A stretch of DNA of 27,342 nt, from assembly GCA_034111105.1 (NCBI GenBank), contig JAWUXY010000031.1, positions 1-27,342 on the forward strand. Reading direction: 5' to 3'. The translations under genes and the position numbers were made by a program. Positions 1,888 to 15,077 of the stretch are shown in pieces. The notes beneath the pieces are model-generated. The model worked only from the letters and a program-made list of their open reading frames with translations, did no database searches and was not told the origin of the DNA. The stretch's first letter is position 1. Each line of letters begins with the position of its first letter. The stretch is from Bermanella sp. (GTDB lineage: Bacteria; Pseudomonadota; Gammaproteobacteria; Pseudomonadales; Oceanobacteraceae).

Positions 1888-2622
1888 ATGAATAAAGACA
1901 AAGAACCAGAACAGTTAGCATCCATAGCAATGAGCCGCGAAGAAATTGCGAGTCGTCAGCGTTCGACGGGTAAATTTAAAGCCCCCGCGTCCAGCGGTGG
2001 ATCGTCCGGTGCCTCAAAAGTCTTATGGGCATTATCGGTCTTTTCCCTGATTTTTTGTGTGGGTTTATTGGTCGAACTTTATAACGTAAAAAAACAGTCT
2101 GAATTACAATTACAGGCACTCACGATTTTACAAGATAAATTAACATCGACGGATGAGCAGGCAAACTTATCTGTGGATGCAGTGAAAATTTTACTTAGAG
2201 AGCAAGACCATGAAATAAGAAAATTATGGGACCTTGCCAATAAGCGTAACAAAGTTGATATCAGTAAAAATACAGGTCGTCTTACAGCGCAAAGTAAACT
2301 GATAACCAAGCAAAGCAGTAAAATGGATGCCCTTAATAAAAACGTAGCTCAACTAGAAAAAAATACAGCCAAACAAATTCAAACGGGTTTAAAACCGATC
2401 AGCGCAGAAATGGAACAAACAAAAACCAATGTCTTATTACTTGAGACAAAATTGGATTCAGGTTTATCAGGCTTACCAAAAAACATTAGCAAAACACTTG
2501 ATGAGCACGGTAAGGGCATCAAAGCAATGGATGCGACACGCTTGCAATTGATGCGTCGAATACAAGCACTTGAAAAAGAAATAAAATCACTTCAAACCCC
2601 CGCACCTGCTGCTCAGCCTTAA
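1888..2622 (+). CDS. Membrane-anchored coiled-coil protein, unknown function
   Basis: 244-aa ORF. It has a Ser/Gly-rich N-terminus, one hydrophobic helix (VLWALSVFSLIFCVGLLVELY), then a long heptad-like K/Q/E/L-rich region. A terminator follows. Confidence 0.6.
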   Translation: MNKDKEPEQLASIAMSREEIASRQRSTGKFKAPASSGGSSGASKVLWALSVFSLIFCVGLLVELYNVKKQSELQLQALTILQDKLTSTDEQANLSVDAVKILLREQDHEIRKLWDLANKRNKVDISKNTGRLTAQSKLITKQSSKMDALNKNVAQLEKNTAKQIQTGLKPISAEMEQTKTNVLLLETKLDSGLSGLPKNISKTLDEHGKGIKAMDATRLQLMRRIQALEKEIKSLQTPAPAAQP

Positions 2623-2638
2623 TTGAGCAGTATGAAAT

Positions 2639-2662
2639 AAAGCCCTAATAGGGCTTTTTTTG
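2639..2662 (+). terminator. Rho-independent terminator
   Basis: agccc (2641-2645), loop taata, gggct (2651-2655), followed by a T7 run. Confidence 0.7.
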
Positions 2663-2670
2663 GATTTAAT

Positions 2671-3570
2671 ATGCATATGTCTTTCGAAGATCAGTTAGCT
2701 CTGCCCTGTTATAGCGATTTTGATGAATTCTCACGTGTGGTTTTATCCTATGATAAAACCAAGAGTCTTGAGGCGGTATTAATGCTCGGATTACGTTGCT
2801 CTAATTTGTCTCAGGCATTTGCGTTAGCTTATCGTTGTGCTTTGCAATCTTTGTTGCCGCAATTAAATCAAAGCCAGTGGGCCGCTATGTGTGTCACCGA
2901 AAGCCAAGGTAATCATCCTAGAAATATCCAGGCTCATATTAATCAAGATGGCAGTGTCACTGGCGAAAAGAGTTTTGTCACCATGGCAGGCTTGGCCGAG
3001 CAGTTGTTAGTGATCGCTAAAGCACAGGGTGAGCAAAAAGATGATTTGCGCCCAGTATTAAAAGCCGTGTTAGTCGATTATCAGCAAGCAGGGGTAAGTG
3101 TTGCGCAAATGCCCGCCATGAAAATGTTGTCTGATATACCCCATGGCATATTAACGCTGAACAACGCTGCGTGCGATATTTTAACGGGTGATGGCTATTC
3201 GGATTACAGCAAACTTTTTAGAGTATTAGAAGATGCCCATATTTTAATGGCAGCCAGTAGTTTTATCTTAAATCAAGCGTATCGAGCAGGGCAGGTTGAT
3301 GTGGTGGCAAAAGCTTTGGCCATGGTTGGTTTACTTAATGGAATACCACTGGTATCAAATCCTTGGGTGCACTTGCAGCTTGCGCAGGGATTTGATCAGT
3401 TTTTACAGTTATGTGAGATGTTTGAGCAAGAACTCCCTAAATATAATGGGGCTGTTTCTGATGCGTGGTTTGTGGATAAAAAATTATTTTCGATTGCATC
3501 AGGTGCGCGAAAAATGCGCACAGAAAAGGCATTACACTGGGTAGCTGCTAAGTCTAGGGGCGAGGTGTAG
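2671..3570 (+). CDS. Hypothetical protein with degenerate acyl-CoA-dehydrogenase-like middle region
   Basis: 299-aa ORF. CVTESQGNHP...GSVTGEKSFVTMAGLAEQLLVIAK loosely resembles the ACAD middle-domain signature and the following G-x-K-x-F-I-T strand, but key signature residues differ. The functional call is weak. Confidence 0.5.
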   Translation: MHMSFEDQLALPCYSDFDEFSRVVLSYDKTKSLEAVLMLGLRCSNLSQAFALAYRCALQSLLPQLNQSQWAAMCVTESQGNHPRNIQAHINQDGSVTGEKSFVTMAGLAEQLLVIAKAQGEQKDDLRPVLKAVLVDYQQAGVSVAQMPAMKMLSDIPHGILTLNNAACDILTGDGYSDYSKLFRVLEDAHILMAASSFILNQAYRAGQVDVVAKALAMVGLLNGIPLVSNPWVHLQLAQGFDQFLQLCEMFEQELPKYNGAVSDAWFVDKKLFSIASGARKMRTEKALHWVAAKSRGEV

Positions 3571-3994
3571 AGACTAAACCGCCTTGGTTTATGACGCCAT
3601 TTGTATAATGGCTACCGTAGCTTGACTCATAATAGGTATTAACAGGAATATTATTTTGCACTTGTATGGTGGGGGCTCGGCGCTCTTCTAGCGTATTTTG
3701 ATTCTCTTTTAACGACAGAATCTCTTCTTCACGGGCATCGGGAATAAGTGCAGTCGTTTCTCCCTGCATATCTAAACGGGTTTCATCCAGCTCATTCAAG
3801 TCTAAGCGGTTTAGCTCAATGCTTTGTGCCGTGGTGCGCTTATAGCGATAAGTGCTGCTGTAGTCATAATGATGTGGGCGTTCTTTTGCTTGATTAACGG
3901 CATCAATTAAATCATTGGCATAATAATTATCCATAGGTTCAACGCCATTGCTGTTTATACTGATGAATATTAAAATAAATAATAACGTCTTCAT
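3554..3994 (-). CDS. Secreted hypothetical protein, paralog A of a tandem pair
   Basis: Signal peptide MKTLLFILIFISINSNG. Shares the YY(A/G)NDI...AK...Y.Y(K/N)RTT(A/S)QS module and the C-terminal STPRP with the neighbouring gene. Confidence 0.6.
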   Translation of the reverse strand: MKTLLFILIFISINSNGVEPMDNYYANDLIDAVNQAKERPHHYDYSSTYRYKRTTAQSIELNRLDLNELDETRLDMQGETTALIPDAREEEILSLKENQNTLEERRAPTIQVQNNIPVNTYYESSYGSHYTNGVINQGGLVSTPRP

Positions 3995-4032
3995 AAATAT
4001 CTATTCTTATTGTTTGGTTAGATGCTAAACAG

Positions 4033-4560
4033 CTACGGCCTTGGTGTGCTGGTAATTGTACCATTAGTGGTTAAGTTATTCGTTCTTACTGTATCGCCAC
4101 GAGGAAATTCGTGAAAAATTTCAGCTGTGAACTTTGCATTACTCTCTGGGATAGCTGGTGGGGCTTGTCGCGTTATTTGTGTTTTTTGATTCGGTTTTGT
4201 TTGCTCTAAATTCTTTTGCAAAGTTTGCGCTTGCGCGTCACCTGGAATATTGTCAGGCGTGCTGACTTTACCCGCGGCAGTAGGTTGCAGTGCGCCCTCT
4301 AGGCGTTCTTGTTCAAGTGCTTGGCTGCCAAGCTTAGGCAAATCAAATGACTGCGATGTAGTGCGGTTGTACCAATAACGATTGGCATAATTAACGTTCC
4401 GATCGTTTTGCTTTGCCTCTAAAATAGCGGCGTTAATGTCATTGCCATAATAATCTTCTCCCATACGAATGCTGTCTTCAGCCAAAGCAAAGGGAAGTAA
4501 TAAGCATATTGGGAAGAACAACACCAATATCTTGCCACTTTTGATTAAAATTCGTTCCAT
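4033..4560 (-). CDS. Secreted hypothetical protein, paralog B of a tandem pair
   Basis: The ORF track starts at a GTG (4581); the ATG at 4560 gives MERILIKSGKILVLFFPICLLLPFALAEDS, a signal peptide. Same conserved N-terminal module and C-terminal TSTPRP as paralog A. Confidence 0.6.
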   Translation of the reverse strand: MERILIKSGKILVLFFPICLLLPFALAEDSIRMGEDYYGNDINAAILEAKQNDRNVNYANRYWYNRTTSQSFDLPKLGSQALEQERLEGALQPTAAGKVSTPDNIPGDAQAQTLQKNLEQTKPNQKTQITRQAPPAIPESNAKFTAEIFHEFPRGDTVRTNNLTTNGTITSTPRP

Positions 4561-4672
4561 GATGTGAAATTCCAGTCGCACTTATTTTGTTATTTTTTGT
4601 AATTATGTCATCATACCGGAATATTTAAAGCGTGTTACCTCTTCGCTAGTAAGAGGCGCATAGAGTCTAAAA

Positions 4673-7043: not shown

Positions 7044-7379
7044 ATGTTAGCGCAAGAAAGTTGTGAAGCGTGTCGTGCGGATGCGCCAAACGTGACGGAT
7101 ATTGAATTAACCGATTTTATGCCGGCCATACCTGAATGGCTTAATATAAATGAAGAAAGCGTTGCGAAGTTGCGCCGTAGCTTTGCTTTTAAAAGCTACA
7201 AGCAAGCGCTTAGTTTTACCAATGATCTGGCTTATTTAGCCGAGCAAGAAGATCATCATCCCGATATTTTATTACAATGGGGGAAAGTAACCGTTACATG
7301 GTGGACGCATAAAATTAATGGGTTACACAAAAACGATTTTATCATGGCTGCCAGAACAGACGCATTATACAAACATTAA
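7044..7379 (+). CDS. phhB: Pterin-4-alpha-carbinolamine dehydratase
   Basis: 111 aa. [42 protein letters not shown] is the PCD/DCoH family signature. Confidence 0.93.
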
Positions 7380-7714
7380 CGGCTGAGTCTTAATGTATCG
7401 ACTTTAAGTACTCGACCTTCACAGTCGCTTGTGATTACGGTGAGTGACAGACCACTTTTAAGTGCTTCAAGCGCCATTAAAAAGCGTCTTTGCGCGACCG
7501 TGTCATACTCACTGTATACGCGATAAACATTAGATGGCTTACCGCCACAGTTGTGTATCTTATTAGCCGAATGAATATCAAACGGCGCTTCTTCATCATC
7601 GACTCTTTGTTCTAAGCCGCTCACTGACAAGCCTTCTACTGCACGTTCATTTCCCCGAGCATTGGTCATAAAAGCGCAGACGCAGAGAATAATCATTAGT
7701 CGATGTAAAAACAT
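7376..7714 (-). CDS. Small secreted hypothetical protein
   Basis: 112-aa ORF with signal peptide [21 protein letters not shown] and two Cys in the mature part. Divergent from the five-gene operon; 4-nt convergent overlap with phhB. Confidence 0.5.
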
Positions 7715-7852
7715 TGTTGTCCTAATTTCAAGTCATCTTATCCTTATCTAAGTATCGACGTAAAAGCTGAAAACTAAAGGATTTTAACAACTAAACATAG
7801 CGTGTACTCATGCTTGAGCTATGCTTTGTAATTGAGTGTATGGCGAAAATGG

Positions 7853-8965
7853 ATGATGCCAAGGATGAAGCAGGACAACGGACTTTACTCGAATAAATAT
7901 GTAATTTTATCGGCGCTATTCTTTATATTATGCGCCATATTTTCGTCGTATGCCTTTTCTGAAACCCGAGTAGTGACATCAGATGTTCCCGGTTTTGGAT
8001 TGCCCCCTACCATGTATGCTGGCTTTTCTCGTCTATTAGATGACGAAAGTATCCTTGTACCCGAAGAGTTATTAGATGTTGATAAAAACATCAAACGTAT
8101 CGCATTTTATTTTAATGGCGATCGCCTGCATCGAAAAATCCCAAAACAAGTTCACTTAATGATTGAGAATAAATTGCTTGGCAAGTTCATGGGGTTAGGC
8201 CGATTTGAAGTGATCGATTGCATTGAGTGTCGTACTACCCGCGTTAATTTCGAAGACTCTCGTATGCTGATTAGCCAGAGTGCGCAAAGTAATCAGGACT
8301 TGCGTGATTTATCTAAAGATGTGCGAGCGGATGCTTTTTTGTTATGGAGCGCCAGTGTGCATGAAGACAAATTCACTATTAATTTACGATTAGTCAGCGC
8401 AAAAAGTAATGAATTAGTGTGGTTAAAAGAATATGCGAAAAAAACCACACGAGAACAAGAAGAGCTTGAATTTGAAAGTATTGAAATGGAAATGGTCGTC
8501 AGCTCATGGGGATTGGCCGCAGAGCGTGATGGCGTTGGAGCTGTCGAAGATGCCACGCTCAGTGGCGTGACCGCTTTTGGAATTCGACGCCGAGAATACA
8601 CCACTTTAAATAAGGATGTAGAATACAGTTTGGGCGTTGAATATTTTAGGAACTTCTCAAGCAGTGATGAATTTGATGTCAGTGGTTTTAATTTAGAAGG
8701 GCGAATATTTGTTAATATTTCTGCGTTAAAAGATTGGGTTAATACCAAAGCCTACGTAGGAATCGGCCAAGCCTTTTTCAGCGGCAGTCACGGTTTGATG
8801 ATGAAATTCGGTTTAGAGTTTCCATTTGTGACTAATGGCTTTATGGCGATTGGAGCCGTGTACTTGGTTAAAGAAGATGTTGAATGGGATAGTAATGCCG
8901 ATTATGAAGACAGCTCTGAATTTGGTGGTGCTGGTTTGGACTTAACCCTCGGCTATCGGTTCTAA
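7853..8965 (+). CDS. Signal-peptide protein with an outer-membrane beta-barrel-like C-terminal half (operon gene 1)
   Basis: The track starts at TTG 7832; in-frame ATGs occur at 7853, 7856 and 7865, so the start is uncertain. Leader VILSALFFILCAIFSSYAFS|ETR. The C-terminal ~150 aa show alternating hydrophobic/polar strands and end in ...LDLTLGYRF, the terminal aromatic typical of OMPs. The N-terminal half contains DAFLLWSASVHEDKFTINLRLVSAKSNELVW, reminiscent of TolB-N/LpoB/CsgG/FlgO-type folds (weak). Confidence 0.7.
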   Translation: MMPRMKQDNGLYSNKYVILSALFFILCAIFSSYAFSETRVVTSDVPGFGLPPTMYAGFSRLLDDESILVPEELLDVDKNIKRIAFYFNGDRLHRKIPKQVHLMIENKLLGKFMGLGRFEVIDCIECRTTRVNFEDSRMLISQSAQSNQDLRDLSKDVRADAFLLWSASVHEDKFTINLRLVSAKSNELVWLKEYAKKTTREQEELEFESIEMEMVVSSWGLAAERDGVGAVEDATLSGVTAFGIRRREYTTLNKDVEYSLGVEYFRNFSSSDEFDVSGFNLEGRIFVNISALKDWVNTKAYVGIGQAFFSGSHGLMMKFGLEFPFVTNGFMAIGAVYLVKEDVEWDSNADYEDSSEFGGAGLDLTLGYRF

Positions 8966-8975
8966 GGAATAAAAT

Positions 8976-9605
8976 ATGAAAACCATTTTATTACTCCTGT
9001 TTATAATGGTCGCTTGTTTAAGTGGCTGCTCGATTGAACAGCTGGCCATGGAAAAGGATCCATTTATGGAACAAAAACCAGCAGAAGATATCGATCCTTT
9101 AAATTCAGAGAGTGCGGAATACGCAAAAAACAATCATGGCGTTGTGAATATACACCGCCATGGCCCAGGTTATGACGTCATGATGATGCTGAACGCAGGC
9201 GAAAGCGATATTATCTTCAGCATGGATTTACCTGTAGGTGGCGCAACCTATATGCCAGAAATTTCAGAGCAAATGAAAGCACATCGAAAAAAAGGGAAGG
9301 GTTCTAATAACGCTGAAGAAGAGAATGATTTTTTTAATGAAAAAGCCTTATCACTTTTCTCTGATGCGACAAAACATATGCTCAGTGCACAGGCTTTGTT
9401 TTATCGTAAATCGTATTGGAAAGCACTCGAGCAAACGAACAAAGCAATGTCTCTAGTGCCGGCGTCTGCACAGGCTTATGCTTTGAAAGGCAGTATTTAT
9501 TACAAAATGGGCCGTAAAAAAGAAGCCAAAGTATCATGGCAGCAAGCATTGCAATTAGACCCTTCTTTAACGGAAGTTAAAGAGAGTTTAAAGCTCGTTA
9601 AGTAG
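8976..9605 (+). CDS. TPR-repeat lipoprotein (operon gene 2)
   Basis: AAGGA Shine-Dalgarno 10 nt after the gene 1 stop. Lipobox MVACLSGC. The C-terminus AQALFYRKSYWKALEQTNKAMSLVPASAQAYALKGSIYYKMGRKKEAKVSWQQALQLDP reads as about two TPR units. Confidence 0.75.
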   Translation: MKTILLLLFIMVACLSGCSIEQLAMEKDPFMEQKPAEDIDPLNSESAEYAKNNHGVVNIHRHGPGYDVMMMLNAGESDIIFSMDLPVGGATYMPEISEQMKAHRKKGKGSNNAEEENDFFNEKALSLFSDATKHMLSAQALFYRKSYWKALEQTNKAMSLVPASAQAYALKGSIYYKMGRKKEAKVSWQQALQLDPSLTEVKESLKLVK

Positions 9606-9614
9606 GGAATATCT

Positions 9615-11555
9615 ATGCTGAAAAAATATGGATTATTATGGGTAGTGTTAGCCAGTTTATCGTTAATAGCGCAGGCCGCGACGAACACGCCTGTTGAAGT
9701 ACAAACAAAAACCGATGACTTAGAAGAGCTACAGCTTAAATCACAACTAGAAGATAGTCTGGCTCGTGATATTCAGTCTTATCTTGGCCATAATCGATTT
9801 ATTGTCAACGTGAAAGTAAACCTTGAAAAAATTCGCCAAGTTATTAAAACAAAATCAAAACAATCAACACCATTATCTAAAACATACCAACCTACTTTTT
9901 TGCCAAAGCTCACGTTTCCTAATGCAGTTGAAGATGATACTTATGAGGTAGAAAGCTTACCCGGGTTGCCCTTTGTTGATATTCCGGGCGATAAAGAAAA
10001 AGACGCTGAACTGAAGTTTATGCGAGAACAGGTTGAACGTTTACAGCAAGAACAGCGTCAACCACGTTGGCAGGATAGAGAAAACGAAGATGCAAGCGGT
10101 AATGGTGGCTCAGAAGAAACCGTAGGGGTATTTAATCGTATTGCTAAACTAATGGTTACATTAGCGGTTGAAGAAAATGTGAGTGCAGAGCAAGAAGCTT
10201 TTTTAAGAAATTTAGTTTACCAAAAAGCGTCGCTTAATGACTTACGGGGTGATGAGCTTAAAATTATTAGAACACAGTTTTCCAGTATCCCTATAACGGA
10301 AAAAGAAAAGGAACAAATTGCGTCGCCGTTTTCTGATGAGTCAGCGCCGGCACAAAATTGGATGGATGAAAATTTCAATGCGCTATTGTTAGGGTTGTTA
10401 AGTTTATTAGCATTACTGCTAATTAGTTTGATTGTGTTATCAATGCGTAAAAAATCACAACCAAGCGAAGCACAAAATATGTCATCCAGTGACATATCAC
10501 ATACACCTAATGTGTTAGCCACTCCTGAAGCGGAAGGCCCAGACAGTAAGCTCATCATGCAAAAAACTCGGCAAGATATTATATCGCTCGGTTTAGGTCA
10601 GCCTCAGCATGTTCAAGGCACAATGGACCAATTATTGAGCCAAGAAGAAAAAATACCCATGGCGGCGTCTATTTATAAAGTATTGGGTCGCAGCTTGTTT
10701 CGCTCTATTTTTCCTAATATTGAGCAATTTCAGTTGCAAAGTATCATGGCTCACTTAGCCGATCAGCCGCCGGATGACGATCAGCAATTTCAAGACACTC
10801 AAGATTTTTATCAATTATTGCAAAAATCCGTGCAAGAAACAGCAGAAGTAAAATCGCACCCTTTTGAATTTTTAGGCAAATTAAATGACAGCCAAGTTTT
10901 GTATTTGATGCAACATGAAGATGCTCGCATTCAAGCTTTGGTGATTAGTCAACTGCAAGCGCAGCAAGCCGCGCGAGTACTCAATCGCATTAATGAAAAA
11001 CGCCAAGCCCAAGTCATTGCAGAGTTAGGCCAGTTTGAAACATTCCCGTTGGATACCTTTAAAGATGTCGCCGATCGTTTAGCTAAATCTGCATTAAACG
11101 TCCCTAGCTTTGAAAACGTTAATGCTGATGGTTTGCATATGTTAATGAACATGTTGGATAACATGAATTCAACCGAAGAGAACAAAGTATTAAAACGCTT
11201 AAAGCAAGATAAGCCGGATACGTTTTATAAGCTGCGCCAACAATATTTTACCTTTGCAGATGTTGTTAAAACCCCAAGACAAATTCTTAGTAACGCACTG
11301 CGTGAAGTGGAGCGCAGTTTCATTGGCCGTGCGATTTGTGGTACTCCTGATGATTTTAAAATTCATGTGTTGTCATCATTGACGCCCAAGTTGAAAGCCT
11401 TAGCAAAAGAGGACTTAAAGCGTTATGAAGGGCGCATTGGTGCCAAAGATGTGGAATCTGCTCGTAAAGCGATTGTGCATAAGTTGCGTGAGTATATTCA
11501 TACGGGCAAATTCTCTATGGACGAACTGCAAGTCAAAAAGCAGGCTGAGTCATGA
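9615..11555 (+). CDS. FliF-like/FliG-like fusion membrane protein (operon gene 3)
   Basis: 646 aa. N-terminal signal or anchor LLWVVLASLSLIAQA. Periplasmic segments LEDSLARDIQSYLGHNRFIVNVKVNL and IAKLMVTLAVEENVSAEQEAFLRNLVYQKASLNDLRGDELKIIRTQF resemble FliF/YscJ ring-building motifs (compare FliF IKRLSVAVVV...RGDTLNVV..F). TM helix LLLGLLSLLALLLISLIVLSM. The cytoplasmic ~355 aa resemble FliG N/M/C, e.g. VLYLMQHEDARIQALVISQLQAQQAARVLNRINEKRQAQVIAEL and YFTFADVVKTPRQILSNALREVERSFIGRAICGTPDDFKIHVLSSLTPKLKALAKEDLKRYEGRIGAKDVESARKAIVHKLRE. Coding is near certain; the domain assignment is by eye. Confidence 0.75.
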   Translation: MLKKYGLLWVVLASLSLIAQAATNTPVEVQTKTDDLEELQLKSQLEDSLARDIQSYLGHNRFIVNVKVNLEKIRQVIKTKSKQSTPLSKTYQPTFLPKLTFPNAVEDDTYEVESLPGLPFVDIPGDKEKDAELKFMREQVERLQQEQRQPRWQDRENEDASGNGGSEETVGVFNRIAKLMVTLAVEENVSAEQEAFLRNLVYQKASLNDLRGDELKIIRTQFSSIPITEKEKEQIASPFSDESAPAQNWMDENFNALLLGLLSLLALLLISLIVLSMRKKSQPSEAQNMSSSDISHTPNVLATPEAEGPDSKLIMQKTRQDIISLGLGQPQHVQGTMDQLLSQEEKIPMAASIYKVLGRSLFRSIFPNIEQFQLQSIMAHLADQPPDDDQQFQDTQDFYQLLQKSVQETAEVKSHPFEFLGKLNDSQVLYLMQHEDARIQALVISQLQAQQAARVLNRINEKRQAQVIAELGQFETFPLDTFKDVADRLAKSALNVPSFENVNADGLHMLMNMLDNMNSTEENKVLKRLKQDKPDTFYKLRQQYFTFADVVKTPRQILSNALREVERSFIGRAICGTPDDFKIHVLSSLTPKLKALAKEDLKRYEGRIGAKDVESARKAIVHKLREYIHTGKFSMDELQVKKQAES

Positions 11556-12349
11556 TTAGTTTTAGTACGCTCATTGGTATCACAGCAGGTATTGGCTTAT
11601 TTGTTTTGGCCATTGCCAGTAGTACAGATAACTACATGATGTTTTTAAATCTTGCCAGCGCCATGATGGTGATCGGCAGTACGTTTGCAGCATCGCTCAT
11701 TAGCTTTAGTTTTTTAGAAGTGATGCACGCTGTGAAAGCCATGTTTCAAACGCTTGCGGCTGGGCATACGACACAAGTGCATTTACGCGACCTAGTAAAG
11801 CGCTTTGTGGAATTTAGCCGCATTTATCGTGATGGTGGTATTTCTGCCTTAGAAGATAGTTTAAGCAATAAAGAAAAAAATGATGATTTCTTGTCGTTAG
11901 GGCTAGAGCTAATGGGCTCGGGTTACAAGCAAAGTGATATCCGTGTGATTATGGGGGATGCCATGGACAGCCATTGGCAGCGCCAAAGTCTAGAAGGTAA
12001 AATCCTTAATACCATGGGCATTTATGCACCCGGCTTTGGCATGGTGGGCACCATTGTTGGTTTGATTATCATGCTGGATAACATGGGCGATGATATGGCC
12101 AATCTAGGCAAAGGGTTAGCGTTGGCGTTAATTACGACGCTTTATGGAGTGTTACTCGCTAATCTTTTGTTTAAACCCACTGCGGCGCAAGTGACAGAGA
12201 AACAAGAGCAAGAGTATTTCCGTAATCAATTAATAACCGATGGTTTTGTATTACTGGCTGAAAAAAAGGACGCACTTGTAATGCAAGATCGCCTTAATGC
12301 GTATGTGAAACCCAACAAACGCTTCACCATAGTCGAAACCAATGAGTGA
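11552..12349 (+). CDS. MotA/PomA-type stator channel subunit (MotA/TolQ/ExbB family; operon gene 4)
   Basis: ATGA start/stop overlap with gene 3. Four hydrophobic helices with a ~100-aa loop between TM2 and TM3. YAPGFGMVGTIVGLIIML...GLALALITTLYGVLLANLLFKP is the MotA/PomA core with both conserved prolines. The loop YRDGGISALED parallels PomA ARREGLLSLED. Confidence 0.9.
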   Translation: MISFSTLIGITAGIGLFVLAIASSTDNYMMFLNLASAMMVIGSTFAASLISFSFLEVMHAVKAMFQTLAAGHTTQVHLRDLVKRFVEFSRIYRDGGISALEDSLSNKEKNDDFLSLGLELMGSGYKQSDIRVIMGDAMDSHWQRQSLEGKILNTMGIYAPGFGMVGTIVGLIIMLDNMGDDMANLGKGLALALITTLYGVLLANLLFKPTAAQVTEKQEQEYFRNQLITDGFVLLAEKKDALVMQDRLNAYVKPNKRFTIVETNE

Positions 12350-13022
12350 CAAGACTTACAAGCGAGGCTTAAGGCGTCGCCGTGCTACGTTTGATGCTGA
12401 CGGTGAAGGTTGGTTAGTAACCTATGCCGATGCCATTACATTGCTACTGGCGTTTTTTGTGATGATTCTTTCGGTATCGGATCTCAATCAAGGCAAGATC
12501 GAAGCCTTAAAAGAAGGCTTAGCGAGCATTATCTCAGGCAAGCAAGCTCAAACCCCGTTTAACGATATTAAAGACGCGCTGGATGACATTGTTAAGCAGC
12601 ACGGCATGCAAGACTATGTGGCGGTTGATATCGATATGAAGGGGGTTCGGGTTGAATTCTCTAATTTCTCTTTATATCAGTCAGGCAGTGCCGCAATTAA
12701 ACCCGAAGCCTTGCCCATGCTGGCTGAGGTCACAAGAGTTATTAAAGACACCAGTTCATCGACGCACCTCATCGAAATAGAAGGACACACAGACGATGTG
12801 CCCATACATACCGAGCGCTTCCCTTCGAACTGGGAACTCAGCGCTTCGCGCGCCAGTAATGTGGTCAAATACCTTTTGGGCAAGGGCGTTGATAAAGAGC
12901 GATTGAAGGCGTCAGGTTACGCCGACTCTCGCCCTAAGGCTGTACTTGAGCCGGGGCAGGCTTTTACTGAAGACGACAGGGCGGCCAACAGGCGAGTCGT
13001 TATTTATGTAAAGCGTTACTAA
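12342..13022 (+). CDS. MotB/OmpA-type stator anchor subunit (operon gene 5)
   Basis: 8-nt overlap with gene 4. GWLVTYADAITLLLAFFVMIL is the MotB TM with the conserved Asp. The C-terminal OmpA-like peptidoglycan-binding domain includes IEGHTDDVP, NWELSASRASNVVKYL and NRRVVIYV. Confidence 0.9.
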   Translation: MSDKTYKRGLRRRRATFDADGEGWLVTYADAITLLLAFFVMILSVSDLNQGKIEALKEGLASIISGKQAQTPFNDIKDALDDIVKQHGMQDYVAVDIDMKGVRVEFSNFSLYQSGSAAIKPEALPMLAEVTRVIKDTSSSTHLIEIEGHTDDVPIHTERFPSNWELSASRASNVVKYLLGKGVDKERLKASGYADSRPKAVLEPGQAFTEDDRAANRRVVIYVKRY

Positions 13023-13050
13023 CATCTATAAAACCCGTAACTCCTATTTC

Positions 13051-13084
13051 AGGCCCTATGTGAAAGCATAGGGCTGTTTTTTTG
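13051..13084 (+). terminator. Rho-independent terminator of the five-gene operon
   Basis: gccctatg (13053-13060), loop tgaaag, catagggc (13067-13074), then a T7 run (13077-13083). Confidence 0.75.

Positions 13085-13310: not shown

Positions 13311-15077
<1,767 letters not shown>

Follow-up and report, generated by a model that had tools for sequence, protein, structure and literature searches.

A stretch of 27,342 nucleotides from Bermanella sp. (assembly GCA_034111105.1, contig JAWUXY010000031.1; this whole stretch is referred to as the window) carries a cassette of five genes, g1 to g5, which is a real and strongly conserved feature, with the look of a flagellar-type rotor-stator engine without a flagellum. 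The g3 gene encodes a rotor-like protein, g4 and g5 the two subunits of a stator, and g1 and g2 two proteins predicted to reside in the outer envelope. A preliminary description of this DNA had proposed a stand-alone machine that pairs a flagellar-type stator with a rotor-like protein and two outer-envelope proteins, and this proposal was supported by homology, conservation and genomic context. We consider it rather probable that the five genes specify a self-contained machine assembled from flagellar parts, in which an outer-membrane scaffold accompanies rotor and stator.

Stator subunits g4 and g5

The g4 protein matched PF01618 (MotA_ExbB; E-value of 1e-21), and aligned over its full length (residues 4-258) to MotA from C. 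sporogenes (8ucs and 6ysf; 3e-36) and to PomA from Vibrio (2e-29). Among the NCBIfam models, the E-values were 7e-48 for MotP, 3e-41 for MotA and 2e-39 for PomA, and 4.9e-3 for ExbB and 6.5e-3 for TolQ; the equivalog cut-offs of the first three were all missed (scores of 162.9 vs 394, 141.2 vs 340, and 135.6 vs 341, respectively). The g5 protein matched MotB_plug (2e-14) and OmpA (1e-16), and its alignments with the MotB and PomB proteins in the PDB ranged from 2e-25 to 4e-20. The NCBIfam model MotD gave 5e-53 with g5, yet the score was below the cut-off (180.2 vs 283). The initial assignment of g4 as a MotA/PomA-like protein with four transmembrane (TM) helices and of g5 as a MotB-like protein with an OmpA domain was therefore borne out by Pfam and by the full-length alignments.

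The conservation of functional residues was scored over approximately 60 family members, none of them identical, drawn from every type of locus (61 for g4 and 59 for g5). Asp30 of g5, which corresponds to D32 of MotB and D24 of PomB, was kept in 58 of the 59 sequences, and P160 and P209 of g4, the equivalents of P173 and P222 of MotA, were present in all 61. R93 and E101 of g4 (51/61 and 55/61) aligned with R88 and E96 of PomA, the counterparts of R90 and E98 of MotA. Three threonine residues of g4, T167 and T196 (61/61 each) and T195 (57/61), aligned with T158, T185 and T186 of PomA, which line the Na+ site of that protein. The coupling ion of g4/g5 may be Na+, since these three ion-site threonines were retained. 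Judged from their sequences, g4 and g5 constitute a MotA5B2-type stator like that of flagella, which bears a plug and is anchored to peptidoglycan.

Rotor-like protein g3

In databases, g3 is annotated as "flagellar motor switch protein FliG". Pfam detected FliG_M (1.5e-12) and FliG_C (1.8e-17) in this protein, both of which were also matched by all 30 of the family members sampled, and residues 415-632 aligned with the MC fragment of FliG from T. maritima (E 7e-22, phmmer). FliG_N scored 19.6 bits in g3 (cut-off of 25), on the wrong stretch, and was matched at E<0.01 by 18 of the 30 members. When the model of the cytoplasmic part was compared with known structures by Foldseek, it aligned with FliG from Salmonella (8umx_B, 328 residues) over 315 columns (E 9e-10), and further matches were found with 1lkv and 3hjl. 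The equivalog cut-off of TIGR00207 (fliG) was missed (79.4 bits vs 226.7).

The periplasmic part resembled the ring-building motif (RBM) 3 and β-collar of FliF. YscJ_FliF_C covered residues 55-222 with its whole profile (E 6e-3) and was matched by 11 of the 30 family members, with a best E-value of 5e-9. Foldseek aligned this part with S-ring/RBM3 structures of FliF (8z5v, 8z4g and 6sd1) at E-values of approximately 1e-3 and a probability of 1.0; SpoIIIAG was a weaker match. No match to the RBM1-RBM2 domain (PF01514, YscJ_FliF) was found in g3 or in the 30 members, and the periplasmic part is only approximately 200 residues long. At the N-terminus, a signal-peptide-like segment ends in AQA, and a single internal TM helix stands in place of two flanking ones.

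The structure of g3 was modelled with AlphaFold as a monomer, from an alignment of 14 sequences (mean predicted local distance difference test, pLDDT, of 72). The model consists of a signal-like helix, a periplasmic α/β domain, one TM helix and an all-helical cytoplasmic part; the periplasmic fold has two strands of ~20 residues around an insertion of low confidence. Two motifs in the periplasmic part were conserved in 66-69 of 69 family members across phyla: LPGLP (residues 115-119), within this insertion, where the collar-like hairpin has its tip, and RGD (residues 211-213), just before the membrane. The preliminary description had divided g3 into a periplasmic domain, one TM helix and a large cytoplasmic domain, and the TM helix was indeed located at residues 256-277. 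Its comparison of g3 with both FliF and FliG held at the profile level for FliG_M and FliG_C, which were significant; the FliF profile fell short in the window protein itself and reached significance in family members. Taking sequence and model together, g3 appears to be a natural FliF(RBM3)-TM-FliG(N-M-C) fusion.

Residues at the rotor-stator interface

The conservation of g3 residues was scored over the same 69 family members. In the predicted torque helix (residues 590-609), the position of K592, which corresponds to R281 of E. coli FliG, was basic in 68 sequences, and position 600, corresponding to D289, was acidic in 63. One report on the flagellar motor gives the charge pairs as MotA R90-FliG D289 and MotA E98-FliG R281 (PMC7564593). 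Because R93 and E101 of g4 and residues 592 and 600 of g3 are conserved at the equivalent positions, both charge pairs are preserved on both partners.

On the other hand, the EHPQR motif, to which FliM binds, reads E-D-A-R in g3, and the family consensus is E-[DE]-x-R, from which H, P and Q have gone. This loss fits the absence of FliM and FliN, neither of which was found in the cassette locus.

Outer-envelope proteins g1 and g2

The g1 protein begins with a signal sequence, and its last residues are GYRF, of which the final F was invariant in 14 homologues. Homologues of g1 are named solely "hypothetical protein". In the AlphaFold 2 model (pLDDT of 78), a C-terminal β-barrel of eight strands (approximately residues 217-377) resembled NspA, OmpA, Ail and OmpX (Foldseek E-values of 4e-6 to 3e-5), and a periplasmic α/β domain (approximately residues 60-205) resembled LpoB-C (4e-5), TolB-N and PelC. 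The FlgO domain (PF17680) scored 18.6 bits with g1 of the window over part of the profile only (cut-off of 22.6), and 25.7 bits, above the cut-off, with the g1 homologue of a high-GC locus (L081). Three of 13 g1 members matched FlgO, and others matched CsgG or LpoB. There is no lipobox in g1, the anchor of which is the C-terminal barrel. The original view of g1 as an outer membrane protein agreed with the signal sequence, the barrel and the GYRF terminus, and has to be widened from a barrel alone, since g1 also carries the FlgO/LpoB-like periplasmic domain. As a separate observation, a periplasmic CxxC motif (C-I-E-C; window positions 8219-8230, g1 residues 130-133) was invariant in the gammaproteobacterial homologues and replaced in those of Fibrobacterota.

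For g2, a lipobox and tetratricopeptide repeat (TPR) units had been noticed at the outset, and both were confirmed: the lipobox reads LSGC with Ser at +2, and Pfam detected TPR_1 (3e-10), TPR_2 (1e-8) and TPR_11 (2e-8). A conserved middle domain (residues 48-88) precedes the C-terminal TPRs (residues 130-205). By the +2 rule of lipoprotein sorting in E. coli, Ser at this position directs a lipoprotein to the outer membrane, which should thus be the destination of g2. In every locus long enough to hold it, g2 adjoined the other four genes.

Distribution, co-occurrence and selection

We gathered 87 loci by scanning genomes and metagenomes and by looking up single homologues, and searched their open reading frames (ORFs) with the five window proteins. 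With the g3 protein as the sole query, the genome scan retrieved one canonical FliG and, apart from it, nothing but close Bermanella-type relatives. A search with a profile of distant family members yielded 17 proteins, and a profile search of 1.8 billion representatives yielded 163 clusters (50% identity) at E<1e-30. Almost all of the g3 clusters were 560-720 residues long, had one TM helix and began with a signal-like segment; among ~150 representatives, nearly all had one hydrophobic helix at residues ~160-310. Thirty cluster look-ups supplied organism names for four representatives.

The complete order g1-g2-g3-g4-g5 was found in 45 loci, and recurrence of the five genes together in approximately 70 independent contigs goes beyond chance. 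Incomplete sets were cut by the ends of contigs, except for one locus (L080) with g2-g5 and no adjacent g1. The chromosomal type of Oceanospirillales (35 loci, including Thalassolituus hydrocarboniclasticus and contigs with an Oleispira antarctica protein), always followed the genes for fumarase and phhB, and its downstream flank was variable. A divergent gamma-type copy contained the same five genes, with a g1 protein of approximately 35% identity. Four loci of Fibrobacterota had the order g3-g1-g2-g4-g5; the homology of their g1 was weak but significant (E 1e-7 to 3e-9), two proteins of this type were assigned by their NCBI names to metagenome-assembled genomes (MAGs) of Fibrobacteraceae and Fibrobacteres, and a gene with a Fib_succ_major domain lay near one of the cassettes. 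In Fibrobacterota, the cassette was seen in MAGs only. In the high-GC locus L081 (7722-14784), the genes run g3-g2-g1-g4-g5, and a further MotB-MotA pair, in inverted order, comes after them, which gives one rotor gene with two stator sets.

Selection was estimated by comparing the window with five relatives (amino acid identity of 75-97%). The ratio of nonsynonymous to synonymous substitutions (dN/dS) was 0.02-0.08 for g2-g5 where dS was estimable, with dS near saturation. No ratio was obtained for g1, for which dS was saturated in all five comparisons and dN was 0.02-0.08; g1 was the most conserved of the five proteins, with 97% identity where synonymous sites were saturated. The five genes were kept together across phyla and under strong purifying selection, in agreement with the co-conservation expected from the preliminary description.

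Two further proteins with FliG domains (L085, 6174-8729; L086, 5521-8211) were considered as family members and rejected, since they had no adjacent stator and matched only in the FliG part. They are 850-900 residues long, match FliG M-C at the C-terminus, are accompanied by none of the other cassette genes, and appear to represent a different FliG-domain architecture that the search pattern for the family also retrieved. In the divergent copy (L012, 9060-19389; L013, 5272-15588), an extra gene (259-282 residues) lay upstream, and genes for two lipoproteins, the first of ~1045 residues and with an Ig-like domain (Big_13), the second of ~392 residues, lay downstream; the L012 copy was near a TraG-type P-loop gene and a gene for a very large Big_9 protein. 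The extra genes might encode cargo or partners at the surface; alternatively, the module might be mobile.

Gene order, transcription signals and neighbouring genes

The coordinates of the cassette are summarised in Table 1. The tight packing of five ORFs described previously was reproduced, with the same gaps of 10 nt and 9 nt followed by overlaps of 4 nt (ATGA) and 8 nt, and this packing alone suggests that g1-g5 are co-transcribed as an operon. The strong terminator that had been proposed to close the gene set was also recovered: a G+C-rich stem of 10 bp with five G-C pairs (13052-13075), followed by GTTTTTTT (seven T), begins 30 nt past the g5 stop codon and is the strongest of five terminator-like sites in the region. 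The total of five is no excess over the 5.3 expected from shuffled sequences.

Table 1. Positions in the window of the cassette genes, the g3 domains and the terminator-like site.
Feature	Position	Strand	Description
g1	7832-8965	+	TTG start; likely true start at ATG 7865 (homologue alignments)
g2	8976-9605	+	Lipoprotein with TPR repeats
g3	9615-11555	+	Rotor-like fusion protein, 646 residues
g3, periplasmic domain	9693-10280	+	Residues 27-222; FliF RBM3 and β-collar-like
g3, single TM helix	10380-10445	+	Residues 256-277; hydrophobic, inside predicted helix 246-280
g3, cytoplasmic FliG module	10539-11516	+	N-like 309-410, FliG_M 426-496, FliG_C 528-634
g4	11552-12349	+	MotA/PomA/MotP-type stator A subunit; four TM helices
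g5	12342-13022	+	MotB/PomB-type stator B subunit; TM Asp30, plug, OmpA-type peptidoglycan-binding domain
Intrinsic-terminator-like hairpin and T-run	13052-13084	+	Closes the gene set

The nearest relatives of the window proteins were from Bermanella and allied Oceanospirillales. The upstream flank contains maf, sodB, a gene for a DUF2846 protein, and the fumarase and phhB genes, and the downstream flank pyrG, eno, ispD, ispF, surE, and genes for an M23/LysM peptidase and an rpoS-like sigma factor. The housekeeping setting that had been pointed out (fumarase/phhB on one side and pyrG-eno on the other) applied to the window and not to the divergent copy of the cassette beside the TraG-type conjugation gene.

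Within the Pfam-annotated flanks (up to ~10 kb) of the loci examined, no flagellar genes were found, and in none of these loci was the cassette embedded in a flagellar cluster. The earlier statement that there are no other flagellar genes was therefore correct for the locus; it did not extend to the genome, since Oleispira has a full flagellar regulon elsewhere. In Oleispira antarctica, the "whole array" of flagellar and chemotaxis genes was reported in one region of 75 kb, and its single polar flagellum was credited with "two stator systems MotAB and PomAB" (PMC3759055). On the Oleispira-type contigs, the cassette lay beside gspD, maf, sodB, fumarase and phhB, outside the flagellar region. 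With a separate 75-kb flagellar region and the cassette elsewhere, the cassette coexists with a complete flagellum in hosts of this type. One of the two reported stator systems may be the g4/g5 pair, and, if so, the count is probably a misreading. In the genome of Fibrobacter succinogenes, no known motility genes were reported (PMC3079729).

A divergent ORF of 112 residues on the minus strand (7376-7714), directly upstream of g1, has a signal-peptide-like N-terminus and belongs to no Pfam family. It was kept in 34 loci of the Oceanospirillales type and was considered as a sixth component, which we rejected because it was found only where the whole neighbourhood was syntenic, and was absent in Thalassolituus, Fibrobacterota and the other variants; it is probably merely syntenic with the cassette. 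In 24 Oceanospirillales loci, synteny with the cassette region was also seen for four other genes of the window (1888-4581; 244, 299, 146 and 182 residues), for which Pfam matches were none or marginal (Acyl-CoA_dh_M on one). The pyrG ORF as listed (13323-15077) begins 39 codons before the CTP-synthase domain. ATG at 13440 is the likelier start, from which the CTP-synthase profile fits from residue 6, and this start leaves approximately 350 nt of non-coding DNA after the terminator of the cassette. Near the end of the window, the minus strand (25090-26034) encodes a bicarbonate transporter of the Na+-dependent SbtA type (Sbt_1, E 8e-109).

Comparison with known systems

The cassette shares with the motor core of flagella a putative RBM3-like domain of FliF, apparently all three domains of FliG and the charges of the torque helix, together with a MotA/PomA-type A subunit containing the conserved Arg, Glu and both Pro residues, and a MotB-type subunit with the Asp, the plug and the OmpA domain. 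A survey from 2025 treats such a stator type, defined by these features, as flagella-specific (PMC12505986). The differences are substantial: FliF and FliG form one polypeptide in the cassette, RBM1 and RBM2 are missing, and the N-terminal TM helix is replaced by a cleavable-looking signal peptide. Furthermore, the locus is devoid of FliM, FliN, export gate, rod, hook, filament, LP-ring and che genes, EHPQR is lost, all of the NCBIfam equivalog cut-offs are missed, and the cassette occurs in MAGs of Fibrobacterota.

A fusion protein of Chlamydiaceae resembles g3 as a natural fusion of a periplasmic ring protein with a FliG-like part, encoded in a locus without a flagellum, and was the only natural FliF-FliG fusion that we found described (PMC4768692). 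That protein, of ~330 residues, comprises RBM2, one further RBM and only the middle domain of FliG; no MotAB partner is described, and it was proposed to work with the injectisome (PMC4768692). In contrast, g3 has an RBM3/collar-like domain and an apparently complete FliG including the torque helix, and is encoded adjacent to a dedicated stator.

The FlgO-like domain of g1 and the TPRs of g2 are reminiscent of the H-ring (FlgO/FlgP/FlgT) and T-ring (MotX/MotY) of Vibrio and of PflA/PflB of Campylobacter. Stator units are kept in position by repeat proteins, among them MotX, PflA and PflB. No homologues of FlgP, FlgT, MotX or MotY were detected in the cassette, and g1 differs from FlgO of Vibrio in its anchor, a C-terminal β-barrel rather than a lipid. 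FlgO of V. cholerae is an outer-membrane lipoprotein that forms a ring of the H-ring with C58 symmetry (bioRxiv 10.64898/2025.12.02.691832). By analogy with these proteins, we infer a scaffold role for g1 and g2.

Tol-Pal, ExbBD-TonB, AglRQS-Glt, GldLM and Zorya are likewise ion-driven motors of the MotAB family that energise partners in the envelope, and those of Agl-Glt include TPR lipoproteins and outer-membrane barrels. These non-flagellar 5:2 systems have A subunits of the TolQ, ExbB, GldL or ZorA type and no FliG, whereas the A subunit of the cassette is of the flagellar type and its partner is FliG. No TolA- or TonB-like gene was found in the cassette. The system had not been recognised as a described one in the preliminary description, and our literature search, from the coverage of which most subscription journals were missing, similarly found no description of it.

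Proposed mechanism and alternative explanations

As read from the sequences, the cassette most likely encodes a self-contained, ion-driven, non-switching machine of a rotary kind. In this mechanism, g3 would oligomerise into an inner-membrane ring with its FliG_C domains arrayed as a crown on the cytoplasmic side. FliF forms rings of about 33-35 subunits through domains such as RBM3, and rings have also been obtained from engineered FliF-FliG fusions (PMC10941966 and PMC11481574). Ion flow via Asp30 of g5 would turn the g4 pentamer, which would push the torque helix of g3 through R93 of g4 with D/E600 of g3, and E101 of g4 with K592 of g3, so that the g3 ring would rotate relative to the g4/g5 units anchored to peptidoglycan. 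Lacking a FliM, FliN or CheY partner, and having lost the motif that binds FliM, the rotor would turn without chemotactic switching. The g1 and g2 proteins would serve as an outer-membrane-anchored scaffold that positions and activates the stator units, or would receive the motion of the ring. As the site of the work, we favour the envelope over the cytoplasm, since the invariant LPGLP and RGD are both located in the periplasmic part of g3.

Several points weigh against this mechanism. The ring, the rotation, the complex and the co-transcription were all deduced from sequence and from models of monomers, and the g3 model has pLDDT values of <50 over large periplasmic stretches (residues 79-125 and 149-166). 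The YscJ_FliF_C score of g3 in the window is below the threshold (17.5 bits vs 23.8), and position 599 of g3, corresponding to D288 of FliG, was acidic in just 26 of the 69 members, such that two of the three classic charges of the torque helix are kept. The gene set contains no axle through peptidoglycan, which makes a torque path to the outer membrane problematic. No sigma-70-like site was found on the plus strand in the intergenic region ahead of g1 (7715-7831). The assignment to a non-flagellated host rests on two MAG names in NCBI and one Fib_succ_major neighbour, with no cultured strain.

A force transducer or envelope tether that does not rotate would require no ring: g4/g5 would energise g3 to pull on, or signal to, g1 and g2, as in TolQR-TolA-Pal and ExbBD-TonB, for example for outer-membrane integrity, lipid homeostasis or vesicle formation. 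The predicted locations of the five proteins, which cover the whole envelope, the absence of rod or bearing genes from the cassette and the likeness of the N-terminal domain of g1 to LpoB, TolB-N and PelC are all consistent with this account, and the other non-flagellar 5:2 motors, to our knowledge, all work in this manner. However, the partner of this stator is an apparently full FliG in which the torque helix is conserved with charges complementary to the stator, and the joining of FliG to a ring-building domain of FliF represents the geometry of a rotor, not an extended arm of the TolA/TonB type. Since the stator is moreover of the flagellar type with a plug, and not of the TolQ/ExbB type, we regard a force transducer as doubtful. 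It is quite improbable that the cassette is an accessory of the polar flagellum of the host, to which it would supply another set of stators together with helper proteins. The genome paper on Oleispira reads two stator systems for the flagellum (PMC3759055), the hosts belong to flagellated genera, the stator is of the type found in flagella, and g1 and g2 are similar to FlgO and to the TPR scaffold proteins of polar motors, respectively; but a membrane-anchored fusion of FliG with a FliF-like domain could not enter an existing MS/C ring, the cassette was never beside flagellar genes and lies outside the single flagellar region of Oleispira, and the same set is present in MAGs of Fibrobacteraceae/Fibrobacterota.

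An anti-phage or mobile-element function on a MotAB-type motor, as in Zorya, was suggested by the divergent copy beside the TraG-type P-loop gene and large Ig-domain lipoproteins, and by matches of g5 to ZorB profiles (1.5e-18). Matches to ZorB are expected of any MotB, and the match of ZorA to g4 (7e-4) covered only 72 residues of a 590-position profile, in the channel core, with the long ZorA tail missing. Neither ZorC nor ZorD was found, PADLOC gave no match for g1, g2 or g3, and the 35 Oceanospirillales loci are stable, syntenic and flanked by housekeeping genes, all of which make such a function very improbable. That the cassette is a decaying, functionless remnant of a lost second flagellar system is scarcely credible: its parts are all of the flagellar type and the FliM-binding motif is degenerate, as such a remnant might show, but dN/dS was low (0.02-0.08 where estimable, with dS near saturation), all of the reading frames are intact, catalytic and interface residues are conserved, and the same five genes are retained across phyla.

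The self-contained rotary machine is therefore the reading that we prefer. Whether it represents an undescribed class of envelope machine, a flagellum-independent rotary engine encoded by a five-gene cassette from marine Oceanospirillales to Fibrobacterota, is in our estimate an even question, and there is a fair chance that the cassette deserves the name of a new class.

Significance

Flagellar-type stators and FliG are now viewed as exclusive to flagella, and a conserved cassette outside the flagellum would show that the rotor-stator engine is portable. If this is true, five proteins would provide a system for the study of torque without the ~30 other flagellar proteins. The finding also bears on the origin of the flagellar motor, in which the rotor-stator pair either predates the export apparatus and filament or arose from them by reduction: the cassette could be the surviving relative of a pre-flagellar rotor-stator module, from before the export and axial parts, or, alternatively, a reduced derivative that was re-used, for example to move outer-membrane or surface components. 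An output that moves the surface, if true, would be notable for Fibrobacter-type bacteria, which attack cellulose directionally without known motility genes. More generally, the cassette would point to an unexplained, energy-consuming device in the envelope of the oil-degrading marine genera Oleispira, Thalassolituus and Bermanella, and of Fibrobacterota.

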